A DNA stretch of 64,000 nucleotides. Origin: an uncultured Candidatus Saccharibacteria bacterium (GTDB lineage: Bacteria; Patescibacteriota; Minisyncoccia; Phycocordibacterales; Phycocordibacteraceae). Each line of letters starts with the position of its first letter. Positions within the stretch are counted from its first letter, which is position 1. The notes under the pieces are model-generated. The model worked only from the letters and a program-made list of their open reading frames with translations. It searched no databases and was not told the DNA's origin. Shown here piece by piece: positions 9,437 through 36,940 of the stretch. The position numbers were made by a program, and so were the translations under genes. The stretch covers positions 1,825-65,824 of the forward strand of contig CAYOCH010000003.1 of assembly GCA_964402535.1 (NCBI GenBank), read 5' to 3'.

Positions 9437-10471
9437 ATGGGGGAACCGATCCAAGCCAATTGGCGCGTCCTGGCCGCATCACTCGTTGCCGCCGTTCTCG
9501 TGATCGGTGCCTACGTCCTTGCGCGGGGCGTCGAGTCGTCGGATGTCGCACAAGCCTCGACCGAGACGGCGCTCCTGCAGGCGATCGCGGCGAAAGATTC
9601 TGACAACGACGGCCTCCCCGACTGGGAGGAGGCGCTCTACGGCACCGATCCGTACGCGGTCGACACCTTCAACCTCGGGATGACCGACGGCGCCGCTGTC
9701 GCCAAAGGGCTCATCGTCCCGAAGGCGATCGCCACCATCTCCTCGGCGACCTCGACGGCGCCTCTTTCAAGCGACGTGGACTACAAGAAGCTCGGCATCG
9801 CGGCGCCGAATGAGGGCTCACTGACCGACGCATTCGCCAAGAGCTTCTTCACCTACTACGCCGAGACCAAAAAGACCAAGGGCGGCGACCTCTCGCAGGC
9901 GGACATCGACGCGATCGAGCAGCAGGCGCTCGACTCGCTCTCCTCCACAATAGCCAAGGCGCCGGATTACAAATCGGCGAGCGATCTTGCTGTCTCGGGC
10001 TCCGGGCCGGACGCGCTCCGCGCCTTTGCCGTGCAGGCCGAGGCGATCTTCAAGAAGAACACGAGCATGGCGACGACGAGCGAGCTCGTGTATCTGCAAT
10101 ATGCGGCAGAGAGCAACGATGCAAAGGCGGTTGCAGCGCTCGAGTCGATCGCGCAGGCGTATCGTGCAGCGGCTGCCGGGCTCGCCGTGCTGCCGGTGCC
10201 GCGCGAGCTCGCGTCAGCGGACCTCGCGCTCATCAATGCGATGGCGCGCGTGAGCGGGATCGTCGAGAACTTCGCCCAAGTGAACAGCGACCCCTTGGTC
10301 GCGATGATGGCGCTCGAACAGTACACGGCGGCGGCGCAAGACCTGGGTGCAGCGTTTGCGAATATCGCAAATGATTATGCGGTTGCCGGTGTTACGCTCG
10401 ACAAGGGGGCGCCCGGCGCCTCGTTCGTGGGCGTGAGCGCGGCTGCCGCGCGTATCCAGCCTGCACCATGA
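9437..10471 (+). CDS. membrane-anchored protein with a DSDNDGLPDWEE (TSP3/dockerin-like Ca-binding) motif
   Basis: 344 aa: N-terminal TM helix, then the D-x-D-x-D-G motif and an Ala-rich extracellular region. Its stop overlaps the next gene (ATGA). Confidence 0.6.
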   Translation: MGEPIQANWRVLAASLVAAVLVIGAYVLARGVESSDVAQASTETALLQAIAAKDSDNDGLPDWEEALYGTDPYAVDTFNLGMTDGAAVAKGLIVPKAIATISSATSTAPLSSDVDYKKLGIAAPNEGSLTDAFAKSFFTYYAETKKTKGGDLSQADIDAIEQQALDSLSSTIAKAPDYKSASDLAVSGSGPDALRAFAVQAEAIFKKNTSMATTSELVYLQYAAESNDAKAVAALESIAQAYRAAAAGLAVLPVPRELASADLALINAMARVSGIVENFAQVNSDPLVAMMALEQYTAAAQDLGAAFANIANDYAVAGVTLDKGAPGASFVGVSAAAARIQPAP

Positions 10472-19310: not shown

Positions 19311-19321
19311 CTCATACAAGA

Positions 19322-19358
19322 AACAACCCGGCGCCCTTTGGGCGCCGGGTTGTTGTGT
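19322..19358 (+). terminator. hairpin after fusA
   Basis: AACAACCCGGCGCCC-tttg-GGCGCCGGGTTGTT. Confidence 0.6.
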
Positions 19359-19463
19359 GCTACACTGCCCGCACATGCAGACAAGGAACTTCTTTGGCGC
19401 GTATTACTTTACCGGCTCGTCCGGAAGGTTGATCCGCGCGTAGGAAGATTCCCACCCACAGAT

Positions 19464-19496
19464 CAGCCCTCCGGACGGAGGGCTGAGTTCTTTTTA
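19464..19496 (+). terminator. hairpin plus U-tract immediately upstream of a small zinc-ribbon gene (terminator or attenuator)
   Basis: CAGCCCTCCG-gac-GGAGGGCTG followed by AGTTCTTTTT, 13 nt before the SD of the 19509 gene. Confidence 0.55.
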
Positions 19497-19508
19497 GGGA
19501 GGTTCGGT

Positions 19509-19694
19509 ATGGAGATAGAGAAGGACGAGAAGCACTGCCCGCAGCATGGGCCGATGACACACTTCGATCATGTGACGGATACGGAGACCGGCGCGATGCG
19601 GAAATATCGCTGCCAGTCGTGCGCGTTTACCGCCACCGTCGAAGTGCCGCTGCCGTCGTACGTACGGCGCAAAGAGAAGGCACAATGCGCCTGA
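19509..19694 (+). CDS. small zinc-ribbon protein (hypothetical, 61 aa)
   Basis: SD GGGAGG 7 nt upstream of the ATG. C-x2-H...C-x2-C (HCPQHG...CQSC). Followed by hairpin ACACCCCGC-ttcg-GCGGGGTG plus a T-tract at 19698-19730. Confidence 0.55.
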   Translation: MEIEKDEKHCPQHGPMTHFDHVTDTETGAMRKYRCQSCAFTATVEVPLPSYVRRKEKAQCA

Positions 19695-19794
19695 CCTACA
19701 CCCCGCTTCGGCGGGGTGCTTTCTTTACTTTCATGAGAAGGGGAGTAAGGTCATAGATACCCATATTCTGGGTCAACAACGAAGGAGGTGCATC

Positions 19795-20034
19795 TTGAAG
19801 AAAATCCTTTTTTCGCTCTTTTCCGTCATCGCTGCACTCGCCATCGCCTTGCCCGCGCTCGCCGCGAACCACGCGAGCGGCACCATAACTGCCGCGGCGC
19901 CTACGGTCATCGCCGCTGCCGAGAAGGCAAAGCCCGCCGCGAAAGCGACGAAAGCTAAACCCGCCACGGCCAAGAAGGCCAAGGCCGGCAAGTCGAAGGC
20001 CAAGGCAAAAGCGAAGCCAAAAGCGAAGGCCTGA
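19795..20034 (+). CDS. small secreted Lys/Ala-rich (histone-H1-like tail) protein
   Basis: TTG start with SD GAAGGAGGTG 5 nt upstream; signal peptide MKKILFSLFSVIAALAIALPALA; C-terminal KAKPAAKATKAKPATAKKAKAGKSKAKAKAKPKAKA; strong terminator just downstream. Confidence 0.6.
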   Translation: MKKILFSLFSVIAALAIALPALAANHASGTITAAAPTVIAAAEKAKPAAKATKAKPATAKKAKAGKSKAKAKAKPKAKA

Positions 20035-20055
20035 CGCGGCGATCAGGCGAGCAAC

Positions 20056-20090
20056 AAAAAGCGGAGGTCATGCACCTCCGCTTTTTCTTA
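20056..20090 (+). terminator. intrinsic terminator
   Basis: AAAAAGCGGAGGT-catgc-ACCTCCGCTTTTTCTTATC. Confidence 0.8.
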
Positions 20091-20243
20091 TCTTGCGTTT
20101 TTATGAAGGGTCGGTTACCTTTAATCCCAACGCATCTTGGCGTCGCTCTTTGGCTCGTCGGCTGAATTCTCACTGCGGGCCGGGGGTGTTTTCCGACTCG
20201 CGTCGGATTATTAATTCGTGATTTAGAAACGTAATTACCGATT

Positions 20244-21443
20244 ATGGCAGAATTCAATCGTGCGAAGCCGCACATGAACGTGGGCACCATCGGCCACGTC
20301 GACCACGGCAAGACGACTCTCACCGCCGGCATCCTCCACGTCCTCGATATGTTGAAGGGCGAGGGCTATGGCGCCCGCGTCGAAGGCGTCGACAAGATCG
20401 ACAGCGCTCCTGAAGAGAAGGCGCGCGGTATCACTATCGCGCTCCACCACTCGGAGTATGAGTCGCCGAACCGCCACTACGCGCACATCGACGCTCCGGG
20501 CCACGCAGACTACATCAAGAACATGATCACGGGAGCCGCCCAGATGGACGGCGCAGTCCTCGTGGTCGCCGCGACCGACGGCGTGATGCCGCAGACGCGC
20601 GAGCACATCCTCCTCGCGAAGCAGGTGGGCCTTAAGAAGCTCATCGTCTTCCTCAACAAGGTGGACATGGTCGCCGAGGCAGACCTCATCGACCTCGTCG
20701 AAGAGGAGATCCGCGAGCTTCTCACGAAGCAGGGCTACGACGGCGCGAACACACCGATCATCCGCGGCTCGGGCTTGAAGGCCCTCGAGTCGAAGGACGT
20801 GAACGATGAATACGCTAAGAAGGCGAAGGAGCTCGTCGACACGATGGACTCCTACTTCGACCTCCCGAAGCGTGAGACGGATAAGCCGTTCCTCATGCCG
20901 ATCGAGGACATCTTCTCGATCGAAGGCCGCGGCACCGTGGTGACCGGCCGCATCGAGCGCGGCGTGATCAAGGTCGGCGAGGAAGTCGAGATCGTCGGCA
21001 TCAAGCCGACGGCCAAGACGACCGTCACCGGCATCGAGATGTTCAACAAGCAGCTCCAGGAGGGCCAGGCAGGCGACAACGCCGGCATCCTCCTGCGCGG
21101 CACGAAGAAGGAGGACGTGCACCGCGGCCAGGTGCTCGCGAAGACCGGTTCGGTCACGCCGCACACGGACTTCGAGGCAGAGGTCTTCGTCCTCTCGAAG
21201 GATGAAGGCGGCCGCCACACGCCGTTCTTCTCGGGCTACAAGCCGCAGTTCTACATCCGCACGACGGACGTGACCGGCGAGGTCACCCTGCCGGACGGCA
21301 AGGAGATGGTGATGCCGGGCGACACGGTCACCTTCAAGGTGAAGCTCACCGCGCCGGTCGCGCTCGAAGAGCAGCAGCACTTCGCGATCCGCGAAGGCGG
21401 CAAGACCGTTGGCGCCGGCGTCGTGACCAAGATCACCGCCTAA
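20244..21443 (+). CDS. tuf: elongation factor Tu
   Basis: 399 aa with [20 protein letters not shown] and NKVD motifs. Confidence 0.98.
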
Positions 21444-21465: not shown

Positions 21466-21831
21466 ATGGCTACGGAATCGAAACCCAAGGCGAAGCGCGC
21501 CGCAAAGAAGGCGGCGCCTGCGACGGAGCACAAGCTCCGCATCCGGGTCCGCGCCTATGAGCACAAGATCCTCGACCTCTCGGTGAAGCAGATCATGGAC
21601 ACCGCGGCGCGCTTCGACGCTGTCGTCGTCGGCCCGGTGCCGCTCCCCACCGAGATCAAGCGCTGGACCGTGAACCGCTCGACCTTCGTCCACAAGGACG
21701 CTCGCGAGCAGTTCGAGATGCGCATCCACAAGCGCCTGATCGACATCATGAATCCGTCGCCTAAGGTGATCGAGGCCCTCACGAACCTCAATCTCCCCTC
21801 GGGGGTGACGATCGACGTCAAGATGGTTTAA
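21466..21831 (+). CDS. rpsJ: 30S ribosomal protein S10 (with Lys/Ala-rich N-terminal extension)
   Basis: Conserved S10 core KLRIRVRAYEHKILD...; ~20-aa KAKRAAKKAAPA extension. Confidence 0.93.
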   Translation: MATESKPKAKRAAKKAAPATEHKLRIRVRAYEHKILDLSVKQIMDTAARFDAVVVGPVPLPTEIKRWTVNRSTFVHKDAREQFEMRIHKRLIDIMNPSPKVIEALTNLNLPSGVTIDVKMV

Positions 21832-21849
21832 CCCGAGCGCAGTCGAGGG
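21832..21849. repeat. 18-nt repeat CCCGAGCGCAGTCGAGGG (copy 1, immediately after the rpsJ stop)
   Basis: An identical 18-mer recurs at 36923-36940. Confidence 0.6.
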
Positions 21850-21866
21850 TTCTAACCGCCAAGAGA

Positions 21867-21906
21867 ACACGCAACCGCCCCTCGGGGCGGTTGCGTGTTT
21901 TATTTG
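21867..21906 (+). terminator. intrinsic terminator after rpsJ
   Basis: ACACGCAACCGCCCC-tcg-GGGCGGTTGCGTGT followed by TTTATTT. Confidence 0.8.
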
Positions 21907-21943
21907 GTGCTATCCTACCGGCAGATGTCACGAGGAGATTCAC

Positions 21944-22126
21944 ATGGATTGGATCGACTACGCGCTTGAAGAAGAGAAGAGCCGGGAGCGGAAGAAAGCG
22001 GAAGCGAAAAGAGGCGGCGTGAAGAAGCAGCAGAACCCGGTGCCAGTTGCGCCCGTCGAAACGCTCCCTGATGTTCCCGATTTGTCCCATAACCACATCG
22101 ATTGGATCCCAGTCGACGAACAGTAA
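21944..22126 (+). CDS. small hypothetical protein (60 aa)
   Basis: SD GAGGAG upstream of the ATG; charged KKAEAKR core; begins DWIDYA and ends DWIPVDEQ; followed by a hairpin at 22128-22160. Confidence 0.4.
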   Translation: MDWIDYALEEEKSRERKKAEAKRGGVKKQQNPVPVAPVETLPDVPDLSHNHIDWIPVDEQ

Positions 22127-22214
22127 CCAAGGCCGCGTCTGGAGCACGCGGCCTTTGCATTTGGCGCTCTGCGTCCGGCCTGGTACACTCGCTCGCGGAA
22201 AGGGGGGCACACCT

Positions 22215-22484
22215 ATGCCTATCAGTTGGATGGAACAGCTGGAACTTGACGAGACGCACACAACCTCGAGGGAGACTGCATTGGCTAAAGAACAACCGTA
22301 CATTGTCGCTGGGATCAAGAACTACTTCGGCGGTACTGGCGAGCTTGGCGTAGAGCTCGGCACATTTCGCACTGTTGAGTTTGCGCTCCACGCGCGCGAA
22401 GCGATACTCAAGCTCGCGATAAAAAAGGGCTGGTCGGGCCGTCGCGGAATATTCCAGAACGGGAAGCTGATCAAAGAGATCTGA
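22215..22484 (+). CDS. small hypothetical protein (89 aa)
   Basis: ATG preceded by GAAAGGGGGG; followed by a strong terminator at 22501-22530 (AAAGGCAGGCCCCGGCCTGCCTTTTTTATT). Confidence 0.45.
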   Translation: MPISWMEQLELDETHTTSRETALAKEQPYIVAGIKNYFGGTGELGVELGTFRTVEFALHAREAILKLAIKKGWSGRRGIFQNGKLIKEI

Positions 22485-22500
22485 CAGCACATTCGCAGTG

Positions 22501-22530
22501 AAAGGCAGGCCCCGGCCTGCCTTTTTTATT
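22501..22530 (+). terminator. intrinsic terminator
   Basis: GGCAGGCC-ccg-GCCTGCC stem followed by TTTTTTATT. Confidence 0.8.
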
Positions 22531-22557
22531 GACAGCGTACTCAGACTATTTTATAAT
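22529..22557 (+). promoter_or_regulatory. consensus sigma70 promoter (TTGACA-17-TATAAT)
   Basis: TTGACA at 22529-22534, exact 17-nt spacer, TATAAT at 22552-22557; it drives the small gene at 22589. Confidence 0.6.
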
Positions 22558-22588
22558 AGTCAAACCATGTTCCTTTCGGAGTCATAGC

Positions 22589-22882
22589 ATGTCGAGAAAT
22601 CGATTTAGGGAGGCGCAGGCCTCGCAGTCATTGGTGCGCGTTGGAGGAATAATGTCGGCGTATATGTTGACCGCTCGCCTGAATGCTCTGGGCGGGACCT
22701 CAGCAATCCGTCCGAAGTTCTGGGGAAACGAGCAATTGCTTCAGGAGTATGCACGGCGGAGGGCTGCGTTGAGCTGGCCAGAGCAGAGTCTCGTCGTGCA
22801 GGAAGTTCTCGAAAACGCCAGGCACAATCTCAAACTAATCGAAAAAGAAATCTTGCGTCGCATGAATGCGAAAGCCCGCTGA
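22589..22882 (+). CDS. small hypothetical protein (97 aa)
   Basis: The ATG at 22589 has GGAG 8 nt upstream and a consensus promoter ~30 nt upstream; lower GC; no known motif. Confidence 0.45.
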   Translation: MSRNRFREAQASQSLVRVGGIMSAYMLTARLNALGGTSAIRPKFWGNEQLLQEYARRRAALSWPEQSLVVQEVLENARHNLKLIEKEILRRMNAKAR

Positions 22883-23008
22883 TCGGCGGGTTTTCTGTTT
22901 CCTTGCATGATTTTTCGTTCTCGTGTAGAGTGCCTCCATCGCTACGACCCCATGCGGGTCCTCCAGCAAATCGCGCACCAGCGATTGCTGGCGCGCGATT
23001 TCTATCAA

Positions 23009-23623
23009 ATGAAATTCATCCTCGCCAAGAAAGAGAAAATGACCCGCATCTTCGCGGATGACGGCCGCGCGCTCGCCGGCACGATCCTCAAGGCGGAGCC
23101 GATTACCGTCACGCAGGTGAAGTCGGCCGACGGCAAGGACCAGTACTCGGCCGTCCAGGTCGGGATGGGGGAGCGCCGCGCCACGACGGTCTCTAAGGCC
23201 GTCCTCGGCCACGGCAAGGGCAAGGCCTACGAGGCCGTGCGCGAGTTCCGCGACGCATCCGGCCTCTCCGTGGGTGCTGCGATCGACGCGTCCGTCTTCG
23301 CGGTGGGCGATGTGGTCCGCGTCTCGGGCATCACCAAGGGCAAGGGCTTCGCCGGTGTGGTGAAGCGCCACGGCTTCCACGGCGGTCCGCGCACTCACGG
23401 CCAGAAGCACACCGAGCGCGCCCCGGGCTCGATCGGCGGCTCGGGCGGCCGCGCAGGCGGTCGCGTCGTGAAGGGCAAGCGCATGGCGGGCCGCATGGGC
23501 TCTGACCGCGTCACGGTCAAGAACCTCAAGGTGCTCGCGATCGACCTTGCAGCCGGCGAGATCATCGTCTCGGGCGCCGTCCCGGGCCGCCGCGGCACCG
23601 TGCTCGAGGTAGCCGCCGCATAA
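23009..23623 (+). CDS. rplC: 50S ribosomal protein L3
   Basis: MKFILAKKEKMTRIFADDG aligns with the L3 N-terminus (KKVGMTRIF); the longest ORF starts at 22907. Confidence 0.93.
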   Translation: MKFILAKKEKMTRIFADDGRALAGTILKAEPITVTQVKSADGKDQYSAVQVGMGERRATTVSKAVLGHGKGKAYEAVREFRDASGLSVGAAIDASVFAVGDVVRVSGITKGKGFAGVVKRHGFHGGPRTHGQKHTERAPGSIGGSGGRAGGRVVKGKRMAGRMGSDRVTVKNLKVLAIDLAAGEIIVSGAVPGRRGTVLEVAAA

Positions 23624-23633
23624 TTTCCGTACT

Positions 23634-24338
23634 ATGGCTACCACTAAGACTATGAAGACTAAGAAAGAAGCCCCGAAGGAGGCCCCGATCTACTCGATGG
23701 AGGGCAAGCAGGTGGGCACGATCGCGCTCCCGGAGACGCTCTTCGCGCAGCCGTGGCGCGTCGACCTGGTGCACCAGGTCTCGACCGCGATCCAGGCGAA
23801 CCTCCGCCAGAACCGCGCCCACACCAAGGACCGCTCTGAGGTCTCGGGCGGCGGCAAGAAGCCGTGGAAGCAGAAGGGCACCGGCCAGGCGCGTCACGCG
23901 TCGACCCGCTCGCCGATCTGGCGCCATGGCGGCATCACCTTCGGTCCGCGCACCGAGCGCGACTACAGCGAGAAGATCAACAAGAAGATGCGCGTCGGCG
24001 CGCTCATGAGCGCCCTCTCAAAGAAGGCGAAGGACGGCGAGCTGATCCTCGTCGACTCACTGAGCTTCGCTGCGCCGAAGGCCGCGACGGCCAAGAAGGC
24101 GATCGCCGCGATCGCCAAGGGCGCCGGCGCCGACACCCTCGCCTCGAAAAAGAAGAACGCCGCGCTCCTCGCGCTCGCCTCCTACGACACGAACGCGATC
24201 AAGAGCTTCGGCAACTTCGGCAACGTGATGACCGAGGAGCTGCGCAATTTGAACTTGCTCGACGTGCTCACGCACAAGTACCTCGTGATCGAGAAGCCGG
24301 AGGCTGCGTTTGCAGCGCTCGCCGCCCGCGCGAAGTAA
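23634..24338 (+). CDS. rplD: 50S ribosomal protein L4
   Basis: 234 aa with a conserved L4 core (GGGKKPWKQKGTGQARHAS). Confidence 0.95.
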   Translation: MATTKTMKTKKEAPKEAPIYSMEGKQVGTIALPETLFAQPWRVDLVHQVSTAIQANLRQNRAHTKDRSEVSGGGKKPWKQKGTGQARHASTRSPIWRHGGITFGPRTERDYSEKINKKMRVGALMSALSKKAKDGELILVDSLSFAAPKAATAKKAIAAIAKGAGADTLASKKKNAALLALASYDTNAIKSFGNFGNVMTEELRNLNLLDVLTHKYLVIEKPEAAFAALAARAK

Positions 24339-25570: not shown

Positions 25571-25579
25571 GACAAAAGC

Positions 25580-25618
25580 AAATCGCCCGCGGCGTCCGCC
25601 GCGGGCGATTTCTTTTAC
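25580..25618. terminator. bidirectional intrinsic terminator after rplB
   Basis: AAATCGCCCGCGG-cgtc-CGCCGCGGGCGATTT with T-tracts on both sides. Confidence 0.75.
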
Positions 25619-26376
25619 TATCGGTACGCCGGTTTGAGGACTGAAGAGAGCTCGGAGAGGGGGATACGGACTGTCTGGGGGCCGGCAGCATAGGGGCCAG
25701 CCTGATAGGGGGCGAAGAGGATCACGAATTCGCGGTTGTCGAAGAAGAAATCGGCAAAATTCTTAGCATCTGGCGCGGTGCCGGCGTTGATCTGCTCGGT
25801 ATCGGCGTTGGGCGCCTGTGCGGCGGCGATCTGGCTGCGCGAGATCGAAGAGAGCGTGTCCAGGTAGTCGCCCTGGAAGATGTCGGAGAGCGCGAGCGCC
25901 TTGCCGGTCTTGGTGTCGAAGGTGAAGGTCGCGAACGTCGTGTTGCCGTGCGCGCCGAGCGTGTCGGCGTAGACCGTGAAGATGTACGAGATGGTGCGTG
26001 ACGACGAGCCGATCAGGTAGACGATGTTCAAGGTCTGTTTGCGTCCCCGATCGTAGCCCATCACGCGGATGTCGCGCGGCGAGAGGTTGTCGAAACGACC
26101 GTCGGTCTTGAACTGCGCGATCGTGTCGCGGATGAAGGTATACAGCTGCGAGCGCGCTGCGGCGTCTGCTGCTGGTGCAAGCGGCGTTGAGGTCGCGTAA
26201 TTTGCCGAGATATCGTAGTACTTCGCGCTCTCTTCGTAGTGGCCGGGCGGGAGCACTATCGCGGACGGGTTCTCGCCCGGGGCGACGGCCGGGGCAGGGC
26301 GGAGGAATGCGTAGGCGGCCAAGAGGGCGGCGATGACGATGGCAAAGATGGTCAGGAGGGTGGTTTTCTGCGGCAT
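25618..26376 (-). CDS. membrane-anchored hypothetical protein (possibly DUF3298/RsiV-like fold), opposite-strand insertion between rplB and rpsS
   Basis: About 252 aa with an N-terminal TM helix (TLLTIFAIVIAALLAAYAFL) and GC3-rich codons. Possible starts are the ATG at 26376 or the GTG at 26394. Family assignment is weak. Confidence 0.55.
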   Translation of the reverse strand: MPQKTTLLTIFAIVIAALLAAYAFLRPAPAVAPGENPSAIVLPPGHYEESAKYYDISANYATSTPLAPAADAAARSQLYTFIRDTIAQFKTDGRFDNLSPRDIRVMGYDRGRKQTLNIVYLIGSSSRTISYIFTVYADTLGAHGNTTFATFTFDTKTGKALALSDIFQGDYLDTLSSISRSQIAAAQAPNADTEQINAGTAPDAKNFADFFFDNREFVILFAPYQAGPYAAGPQTVRIPLSELSSVLKPAYR

Positions 26377-26398
26377 ATGAGGCGAGTGTACCACCGGG

Positions 26399-26427
26399 TT
26401 GCATAAGTTCCAGACATCTTGTATCTT
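26399..26427 (+). promoter_or_regulatory. putative promoter for rpsS and the downstream r-protein genes
   Basis: TTGCAT (26399-26404), 17-nt spacer, TATCTT; followed by a short CGCGCTTGCGCG hairpin plus a T-tract. Confidence 0.35.
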
Positions 26428-26464
26428 TGAGCTATCTCGCGCTTGCGCGGGCTTTTAATTACTT

Positions 26465-36922: not shown

Positions 36923-36940
36923 CCCGAGCGCAGTCGAGGG
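36923..36940. repeat. 18-nt repeat CCCGAGCGCAGTCGAGGG (copy 2, 18 nt upstream of the beta-CASP gene start)
   Basis: Identical to 21832-21849. Confidence 0.6.

Follow-up and report, generated by a model that had tools for sequence, protein, structure and literature searches.

The rpsJ-rplC junction as a probable accessory-gene hot spot in a Kaiserbacteria-like ribosomal-protein cluster

The junction between the ribosomal-protein genes rpsJ and rplC in the 64,000-nucleotide stretch of patescibacterial DNA analyzed here (contig CAYOCH010000003.1, positions 1,825 to 65,824; the whole stretch is called the window below) is probably a hot spot for accessory genes, located at a seam between operons and occupied in this genome by three insulated monocistronic cassettes, the products of which would be niche-specific small proteins and not ribosome parts. 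Outside this clade the adjacency of rpsJ and rplC is near-universal. In the window, 1,177 bp separate the stop codon of rpsJ from the start of rplC, a segment already described as about 1.2 kb long by an earlier reading made from the letters of this DNA only (hereafter the sequence-only reading), and it contains, as that reading had stated, three open reading frames (ORFs) of 60, 89 and 97 amino acids (aa), all on the plus strand (ORF1 to ORF3, Table 1). The lineage-specific cargo itself extends over about 1.0 kb (approximately 21906-22902), between the conserved terminator of rpsJ and the conserved promoter of rplC. The S10 protein encoded by rpsJ groups with those of Kaiserbacteria and Paceibacterota, and the best relatives of the L3 protein encoded by rplC are found in metagenome-assembled genomes (MAGs) of Kaiserbacteria. 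By these relatives the organism belongs to Ca. Kaiserbacteria (Patescibacteria / Paceibacterota).

Two Logan contigs, each from a different sequencing run, contain the exact ORF2 product; both are 100% identical to the window from the 3' end of rpsJ through ORF1-3, and one of them extends into rplC and rplD. Since two independent assemblies agree completely across the junction, it is not an assembly chimera, the outcome that the sequence-only reading had named as a possible refutation. The source is a MAG contig, and no support for a chimera of assembly or binning was found; against it stand also the two flanks (the rpsJ terminator on one side, the rplC promoter and leader on the other), which are the conserved junction sequences of the clade, and the same type of insertion in relatives, so that we regard this explanation as effectively refuted. 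A search for strain variants by means of the exact L3 product returned the same contig only.

Table 1. Features of the rpsJ-rplC junction and of the related seams in the window (promoters, terminators and RNA elements are predictions).
Feature	Position	Strand	Remarks
Zn-ribbon-like ORF (CPxH...CxxC)	19510-19694		61 aa; Shine-Dalgarno-like GGGAGG
Signal-peptide ORF, Lys/Ala-rich tail	19795-20034		79 aa; Shine-Dalgarno-like AGGAGG
Terminator in fusA|tuf gap	20056-20086
tuf	20244-21443	+	22-nt spacer to rpsJ
rpsJ	21466-21831	+	Pfam Ribosomal_S10, 2.3e-33
18-nt motif CCCGAGCGCAGTCGAGGG	21832-21849	+	second exact copy at 36923-36940
rpsJ intrinsic terminator	21857-21909	+	-42.5 kcal/mol, z -8.7
Candidate extended -10 of ORF1, TGcTATCCT	21908-21916	+	proposed from sequence
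ORF1	21944-22126	+	60 aa
Weak hairpin 3' of ORF1	22129-22155	+	10 bp, then UUUGCAUUU; z -1.2
Candidate extended -10 of ORF2 cassette, TGgTACACT	22181-22189	+
ORF2	22215-22484	+	89 aa
ORF2 terminator	22501-22530	+	11-bp GC stem (hairpin 22501-22524) plus UUUUUUAUU; z -4.4
ORF3 promoter, TTGACA-17-TATAAT	22529-22557	+	exact sigma-70 consensus
ORF3	22589-22882	+	97 aa; alternative start at 22652 gives 76 aa
Terminator 3' of ORF3	22870-22902	+	11-bp stem (hairpin 22870-22895) and U-run; z -3.5
rplC promoter, TTGCAT-17-(gTG)TAGAGT	22903-22931	+
rplC 5' leader	22938-23008	+	z -5.6
Leader stem P1	22941-22967	+
Leader stem P2	22968-23001	+
rplC (L3)	23009-23623	+	Pfam Ribosomal_L3
rplD	23634-24338	+
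DUF3298 gene	25618-26394	-	Pfam, 1.3e-14
TTGCAT-17-TATCTT before rpsS	26399-26427

Gaps and cargo at three junctions of the cluster

For comparison we have used 80 loci around L3 homologues, fetched from the GTDB species representatives (handles such as L003 below refer to the sequences compared), in which the genes for EF-G, EF-Tu, S10, L3, L4, L23, L2, S19, L22 and S3 were located; relatives with an L3 at least 66% identical were considered close. The adjacency of rpsJ and rplC, which the sequence-only reading had placed among the most conserved in bacteria, fails in this clade, as the spacer between both genes ranges in close relatives from 159 to 2,297 bp (median 785) and is longer than 300 bp in 12 out of 16. 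Spacers above this length were also found at fusA|tuf (8 out of 14 close relatives) and rplB|rpsS (11 out of 17), but never at tuf|rpsJ (16 close relatives), rplC|rplD, rplD|rplW, rplW|rplB, rpsS|rplV or rplV|rpsC. Among the distant Parcubacteria, the rpsJ|rplC spacer exceeds 300 bp in 21 of 58, with a maximum of 3.2 kb.

The smallest gaps, of 159-216 bp, appear in L008, L010, L017 and L018 and represent the minimal state of the clade, relative to which the segment in the window is extra DNA, as had been proposed. In this minimal architecture the rpsJ stop is followed by an optional 18-nt motif and then by accgccaagaaaa, a long GC hairpin and a U-run that leads directly into the TTGCAT of the rplC promoter. 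The hairpin and U-run correspond to the rpsJ terminator of the window (hairpin core at 21868-21897), which could be aligned in 10 genomes.

The content of the longer spacers is unrelated from one genome to another. We have identified a sugar transferase in L006 (Bac_transf, 1.9e-56), a protein with an NYN domain together with a secreted protein in L015, a surface protein with a CarboxypepD_reg domain in L016 and a membrane protein in L019, while L007 and L084 share a family of 173/179 aa (36% identity, E 5e-19). When all the cargo ORFs of the relatives were compared to the cargo of the window by sensitive tblastn, the homologue of ORF2 was the sole match. A resemblance of ORF3 to a basic helical ORF in L009 was rejected, as no alignment could be obtained, and in L005 a fragment ahead of rplC that had looked similar to rRNA was dropped when Rfam did not confirm it. 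Within the cargo region, L003 (1390-1440) and L005 (175-225) have in common a conserved stretch of approximately 40 nt, ATCCACA(A/T)TCCAATGTTCGTTATCTCCAACGGTCGT, and in L005 the -35 box and spacer of the rplC type are found once more just ahead of it (TTGCATcttttgagggggtaggg).

In distant Parcubacteria the same spacer can hold type II toxin-antitoxin (TA) genes, ParE in L035 and HicA/HicB with ParE/YafQ in L048, and also a glyoxalase. A TA or anti-phage defense cassette that landed in the spacer had been suggested for the window too, and the small size of the three proteins, with an acidic ORF1 and a basic ORF3, would agree with it. However, no significant match to PADLOC, Pfam, NCBIfam or PHROGs, nor to any TA family, was found for any of the ORFs. 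They do not form an overlapping or coupled bicistron either, since hairpins and promoter-like elements stand between them so that each ORF appears separately insulated, ORF1 and ORF3 are not neighbors, and the homologues of ORF2 travel alone. The suggestion is not supported by these results, and we consider a TA or defense origin very improbable.

The cargo also departs from its surroundings in composition. As noted before, GC content is lower here, 0.50-0.58 over the region 21700-23050 compared to 0.60-0.73 in the flanks (0.55 for the cargo and 0.62 for the whole window), and the GC content at third codon positions (GC3) is 0.63-0.68 in ORF1-3 but 0.83-0.90 in host genes. Besides, Shine-Dalgarno (SD)-like sequences precede all five small cargo ORFs, that is, the three at rpsJ|rplC (GAGGAG for ORF1, AAGGGGGG or GAGGGAG for ORF2, GGAG or GGAGGA for ORF3) and two at fusA|tuf, and none was seen in the ribosomal-protein genes read by eye. 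Together, the SDs and the difference in GC3 set the cargo apart from the core, both in composition and in translation.

With genomic hot spots the junction shares conserved flanks around unrelated content that varies among relatives, a lower GC, atypical codon usage and, in some of the genomes, TA modules. The rpsJ|rplC spot differs from known ones in being found inside the normally contiguous str/S10 cluster, in its tiny cargo (0.3-2 kb), in the restriction of this behavior to exactly three seams of the cluster and in having no tRNA, integrase or recombinase, attachment-site or flanking direct repeats, or target duplication. Gene order and strand are those of the canonical S10 operon (rpsJ-rplC-rplD-rplW-rplB-rpsS...), but predicted terminators and promoters split the cluster after rpsJ and rplB, and rpsJ is joined to tuf; a single operon would have no terminator or promoter between rpsJ and rplC, and both are predicted there.

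The explanation that we favor starts from this segmentation. In Ca. Kaiserbacteria and many other Parcubacteria the str/S10 cluster would be divided into a part ending with fusA, a tuf-rpsJ unit, a rplC-rplD-rplW-rplB unit and a part beginning with rpsS. The bicistronic tuf-rpsJ unit would end at the strong and conserved rpsJ terminator, and rplC would be driven by its own conserved promoter and structured leader, rpsJ and rplC being separate transcription units to judge by these predicted signals, at which transcription would stop and start. Terminator-promoter seams of this kind would be positions where extra DNA leaves the expression of ribosomal proteins undisturbed, and foreign or novel DNA would have been gained and turned over there repeatedly across the clade. 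We infer that the cargo arrived by recombination, for which DNA uptake and then exchange at the highly conserved flanks would be a plausible route, and that its genes code for accessory proteins specific to a niche and not for parts of the ribosome. Patescibacteria have been shown to undergo natural transformation (PMC10633639). Horizontal transfer and islands are common in the group, and predicted islands contain an excess of translation genes (PMC12455944), a tendency of island predictors that a segmented cluster with seams would explain.

The syntenic ribosomal-protein block is the standard marker set for the phylogeny of the candidate phyla radiation (CPR), and it is usually treated as one rigid unit. 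Three recurrent seams with accessory genes would affect gene calling, island prediction and binning checks in Patescibacteria. Full-text searches of the literature found no description of this segmentation of the cluster, nor of the rplC leader described below.

The three small ORFs and their signals

On the strand of the operon, each of the three cassettes would consist of a promoter-like element, an SD and a hairpin, which would insulate them from the expression of the ribosomal proteins. The spacers between the cargo ORFs (88 and 104 bp) hold the hairpins and promoter-like boxes. The most conspicuous of these is the perfect sigma-70 promoter of ORF3 reported by the sequence-only reading, which we have confirmed as the sole 12/12 match in the 64 kb, a score never reached in 20 composition-preserving shuffles. 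It is adjoined at the -35 box by the terminator of ORF2. Three strong terminators, the number given by that reading, are predicted here too (those of rpsJ, ORF2 and ORF3), together with the weak hairpin behind ORF1. The terminator 3' of ORF3, with the stop codon of this ORF in its loop, stands in front of the rplC promoter and is homologous to the one found at the same position in L005; as the sequence 5' of it is not homologous in both genomes, this suggests that the cargo has turned over while the segment next to the promoter was retained. For the candidate -10 elements L084 provides a comparison: a similar TGnTAT box is found there 3' of the rpsJ terminator, and the -10 box of ORF2, TACACTCGC, is identical upstream of the ORF2 homologue of this genome, which also shares the start position.

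For each ORF the annotated frame had the best codon score of the six. ORF2 is the one for which comparison was most informative. A word-indexed homology search covering 5.8 billion proteins yielded one homologue of it, and a profile search with full HMMER, which covered 1.84 billion representatives, added five further small relatives of 65-94 aa; two other candidates from the latter, P0021 and P0025, were rejected as repeat-protein false positives. Compared to the homologue P0002 (59% identity), the proportion of non-synonymous differences (pN) is 0.17 versus a saturated synonymous proportion (pS) of 0.76. Third codon positions hold 39 of the 61 differences, and the signal disappears when the other frames are read. 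Judged by this pattern, ORF2 is a real protein-coding gene under purifying selection that belongs to a very small family. The motifs of the family are AKxKYVVA, FRxIEFA and GIFxNGKF, in a core that begins at about residue 23, the protein of the window having a non-conserved N-terminal extension of 22 residues; an alternative TTG start at 22281 has GAGGGAG upstream. The product is a small cytoplasmic protein, near neutral (isoelectric point, pI, of 8.05), and its fold was predicted by AlphaFold as a beta-hairpin, a helix and a second beta-hairpin, with a confidence (pLDDT) that rose from 53 with two sequences to 74 with seven (about 85 in residues 29-89). Foldseek comparison of this model to PDB and BFVD gave nothing significant.

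The location of this family deserves attention. In L003 and L084, as in the window, the ORF2 homologue is found immediately upstream of the rplC promoter, and the cargo that precedes it is different, a 357-aa protein with a signal peptide in L003 and a 179-aa protein in L084. One could then imagine that the position is functional and that the small proteins, mainly ORF2 and possibly ORF3, are lineage-specific factors of the ribosome or of the rplC operon. The purifying selection on ORF2 and, for ORF3, a pI of 11.3 and a consensus promoter point in this direction as well, and the cationic ribosome-associated factor proposed by the sequence-only reading is weakly compatible with the predicted pI values of the three products (5.0, 8.05 and 11.3). 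But ORF2 is not strongly basic, no similarity of sequence or fold to ribosomal or RNA-binding proteins was found, most close relatives do not have ORF2 at this site (L004, L007, L008, L010 and L017, among others), its distant relatives appear in unrelated and non-ribosomal contexts (L085, L086, L207 and L208), and ORF3 is unique to this genome. A role in the ribosome or its operon seems therefore unlikely to us, and accessory cargo remains the preferred interpretation of these genes.

ORF1 and ORF3 are a different matter. Conservation of the ORFs, a check that the sequence-only reading had set for its own proposal, was found for ORF2 but not for these two, which are orphans and would have been acquired recently or have arisen anew. 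ORF1 is acidic and of low complexity, with its SD 6 nt upstream, and contains a 15-nt direct repeat, CACAT[G/C]GATTGGATC, at 21941-21955 and 22094-22108 (153-nt spacing); as the repeat brackets most of the gene, the protein begins with MDWI and ends with ..HIDWIPVDEQ. ORF3 would be a candidate gene behind a promoter of consensus strength. Either or both could be non-coding, as chance ORFs in acquired or decaying DNA or with the consensus promoter driving a non-coding RNA. The absence of homologues among the 5.8 billion proteins and the viral and metagenome contigs, the low codon scores, the low complexity and internal repeat of ORF1 and the location of the ORF3 stop within the loop of a terminator that is common to L005, with different upstream sequence, are all what one would expect in that case. 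On the other hand, in both cases the annotated frame scores better than the five others, both have at a proper distance an SD-like sequence, rare in this genome, no Rfam match above chance was obtained, and the transcript of ORF3 shows no unusual degree of structure (z -0.64), for which reason a structured small RNA was rejected. We see the non-coding alternative as possible, if on the whole doubtful, and it is compatible with a hot spot at this junction.

No relatives of ORF1-3 were detected in viral contigs (IMG/VR) or JGI metagenomes, nor any match to PDB sequences. A phage or plasmid origin of the segment found no match in IMG/VR, in INPHARED and PLSDB (both by blastn) or in the BFVD fold search.

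Several observations weigh against an accessory-gene hot spot. There is nothing to mark the arrival of the cargo: no recombinase or integrase was detected among its ORFs (Pfam, PHROGs, PADLOC, NCBIfam), and the flanks, checked for flanking repeats, inverted repeats and target-site duplications, gave none that was convincing. The promoters and terminators considered here are consensus or energy predictions. ORF1 and ORF3, with no homologue among the 5.8 billion proteins or the IMG/VR and JGI metagenome contigs and with weak codon scores (0.18 and -0.12, compared to about 0.7 for ribosomal-protein genes), may not be translated. In three genomes ORF2 is found beside the rplC promoter, which could reflect a link in function and not neutral parking. 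The host fraction in the contrast of SD usage, about 12 out of 72 genes by a lax GGAGG test, is approximate and depends on starts taken from automatic longest-ORF calls. Finally, the relatives are MAGs, in which misassembly could contribute to some of the long gaps; the pattern is nonetheless limited to three junctions.

The rplC promoter and its leader

The flank on the rplC side is the better conserved part of the junction. Of 24 relatives, 21 have the promoter motif TTGCAT-17-TAGAGT ahead of rplC, always with the 17-nt spacing and usually with the TG of an extended -10 (TGnTAGAGT). It is followed by a conserved leader (about 75-110 nt across relatives) that is predicted to fold into two elements, P1, a stem closed by GCU/RGC with an apex of variable length, and P2, a long GC hairpin of 14-16 bp followed by the U-rich tract UUUGCUUUAAAAA and an AUG with no SD; the sequence UUUGCUUU (UUUCUAUC in the window) follows P2 at 8-12 nt before the AUG. 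By RNAalifold and explicit pair counting, 94.4% of the cells are paired, versus 19-50% in slid controls, and compensatory changes in 7 pairs and 32 cells support the fold by covariation, values that none of 500 shuffles reached. A covariance model trained on 19 sequences gave 20 matches (61-94 bits), only immediately upstream of rplC and including L084 and L014, both from outside the training set, and weaker matches at the same position were obtained in L022, L027, L028, L035 and L038. The region 22900-23010 had no match in Rfam 15, either at E<=1 or at the gathering threshold, and a scan of the whole window at the gathering threshold gave neither matches nor rRNA, only chance matches below threshold.

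The sequence-only reading had assumed that rplC must be expressed here from a new start at 23009. This could not be upheld, because the start sequence at this position, ATGAAATTCAT / MKFILAKKEKMTRIF, is conserved in all relatives; judged by this conservation the start at 23009 is ancestral, and the 238-aa ORF that can be read from 22907 is a mere read-through of the leader. In L004 (5860-6000) and L013 (1-94) the leader is separated from the start of rplC by an extra segment of about 130 nt, common to both, with the sequence ..aggtttttctaacctcgcttt..gctcgg.aacaaaaacct.ATG.

In E. coli the S10 leader, studied by Zengel and Lindahl, mediates transcription attenuation by L4 in a NusA-dependent manner, as well as translational feedback. 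The rplC leader resembles it in being an RNA structure with covariation in the 5' untranslated region of an operon that encodes L4, made of a predicted conserved stem-loop and then a predicted long GC hairpin, the U-rich tail of which comes just ahead of the first start codon. It is different in that the gene behind it is rplC instead of rpsJ, in lacking similarity of sequence to known leaders and membership of any described Rfam leader family, and in being restricted to Kaiserbacteria-like genomes, so that it is a candidate and not a member of this class. Two details of the sequence, in the window and at the same position in L003-L022 and L084, can be added: the loop of P2 (GCGAUUUGCUG) repeats the 3' arm of P2 plus the tail (GCGCGAUUUGCUUU), the repeated sequence being GCGAUUUGCU, and the GC of the stem that closes P1 can alternatively extend P2 (GCAAA/UUUGC). 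The leader may thus leave room for the alternative pairings that are typical of attenuators, and would be attenuator-like, a feedback attenuator that responds to a ribosomal protein (L4-type).

A more ambitious proposal, to be taken jointly and as speculative, links this leader with the seams. Its first part is that the leader would be an undescribed attenuator, probably L4-responsive and specific to Kaiserbacteria-like CPR. The second is that the seams, protected and highly transcribed, would act as nurseries for the capture or birth of new small proteins with SDs, in a lineage where the core genes do without them; the ORF2 family, ORF1, ORF3 and the Zn-ribbon-like and Lys-rich secreted peptides of the fusA|tuf seam would be such proteins, and ORF2 would have become a lineage-specific partner of the rplC operon.

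In our opinion the rplC leader and the clade-wide pattern of three seams are the parts worth following, and in ORF1-3 we see orphan or accessory genes of an ordinary kind. This comparison yields a new candidate for a cis-regulatory RNA, ahead of rplC, and the tiny conserved family of small proteins represented by ORF2. It also provides, for a group in which hardly any expression signals have been defined by experiment, conserved sequences of promoter, terminator and leader, which could serve the emerging genetic tools (PMC10633639).

Other seams, initiation signals and the 18-nt repeat

The two other seams are also occupied in the window. The fusA|tuf gap (19311-20243, 933 bp) has the same style of cassettes, with a terminator 3' of fusA and two small ORFs (Table 1), and gave no Pfam matches. 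In the rplB|rpsS gap (25571-26464) a strong terminator that looks bidirectional is found 3' of rplB (25578-25612), followed by a gene with a DUF3298 domain on the opposite strand, and the motif TTGCAT-17-TATCTT together with a small GC hairpin stands before rpsS. At the rplB|rpsS junction of L084 there are a polysaccharide lyase and an M78-like gene.

The host genes of the window are essentially devoid of SDs. Many of its genes have a -10-like box (TAGAGT, TACACT, TATACT or TATAAT) shortly upstream of the ATG, for example those that start at 9437, 34829, 36964 and 45349. As these boxes are located only 6-11 nt from the start codon, leaderless or SD-independent initiation would seem widespread among the genes of the window.

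The 18-nt motif directly 3' of rpsJ had been taken as the beginning of the insertion and as a repeat with another copy elsewhere. The second part holds, there being a second exact copy at 36923, but the first does not: CCTGAGCGAAGTCGAAGG is found directly 3' of the rpsJ stop also in L008, with a gap of 216 bp, and in L021, and since short-gap relatives have it the motif does not delimit the insertion. It belongs to the ancestral 3' flank of rpsJ and is a ubiquitous mini-repeat, dispersed over intergenic regions. A degenerate version, CCYGAGCGMAGTCGARGG, was found in at least 120 metagenome contigs with GC contents from 0.35 to 0.72, often preceded by GTCAT or CTGC and sometimes in tandem arrays with periods of 27 or 36 nt (L101, 4269-4367; L140, 21-110), and could be similar to the repetitive extragenic palindromic (REP) elements.

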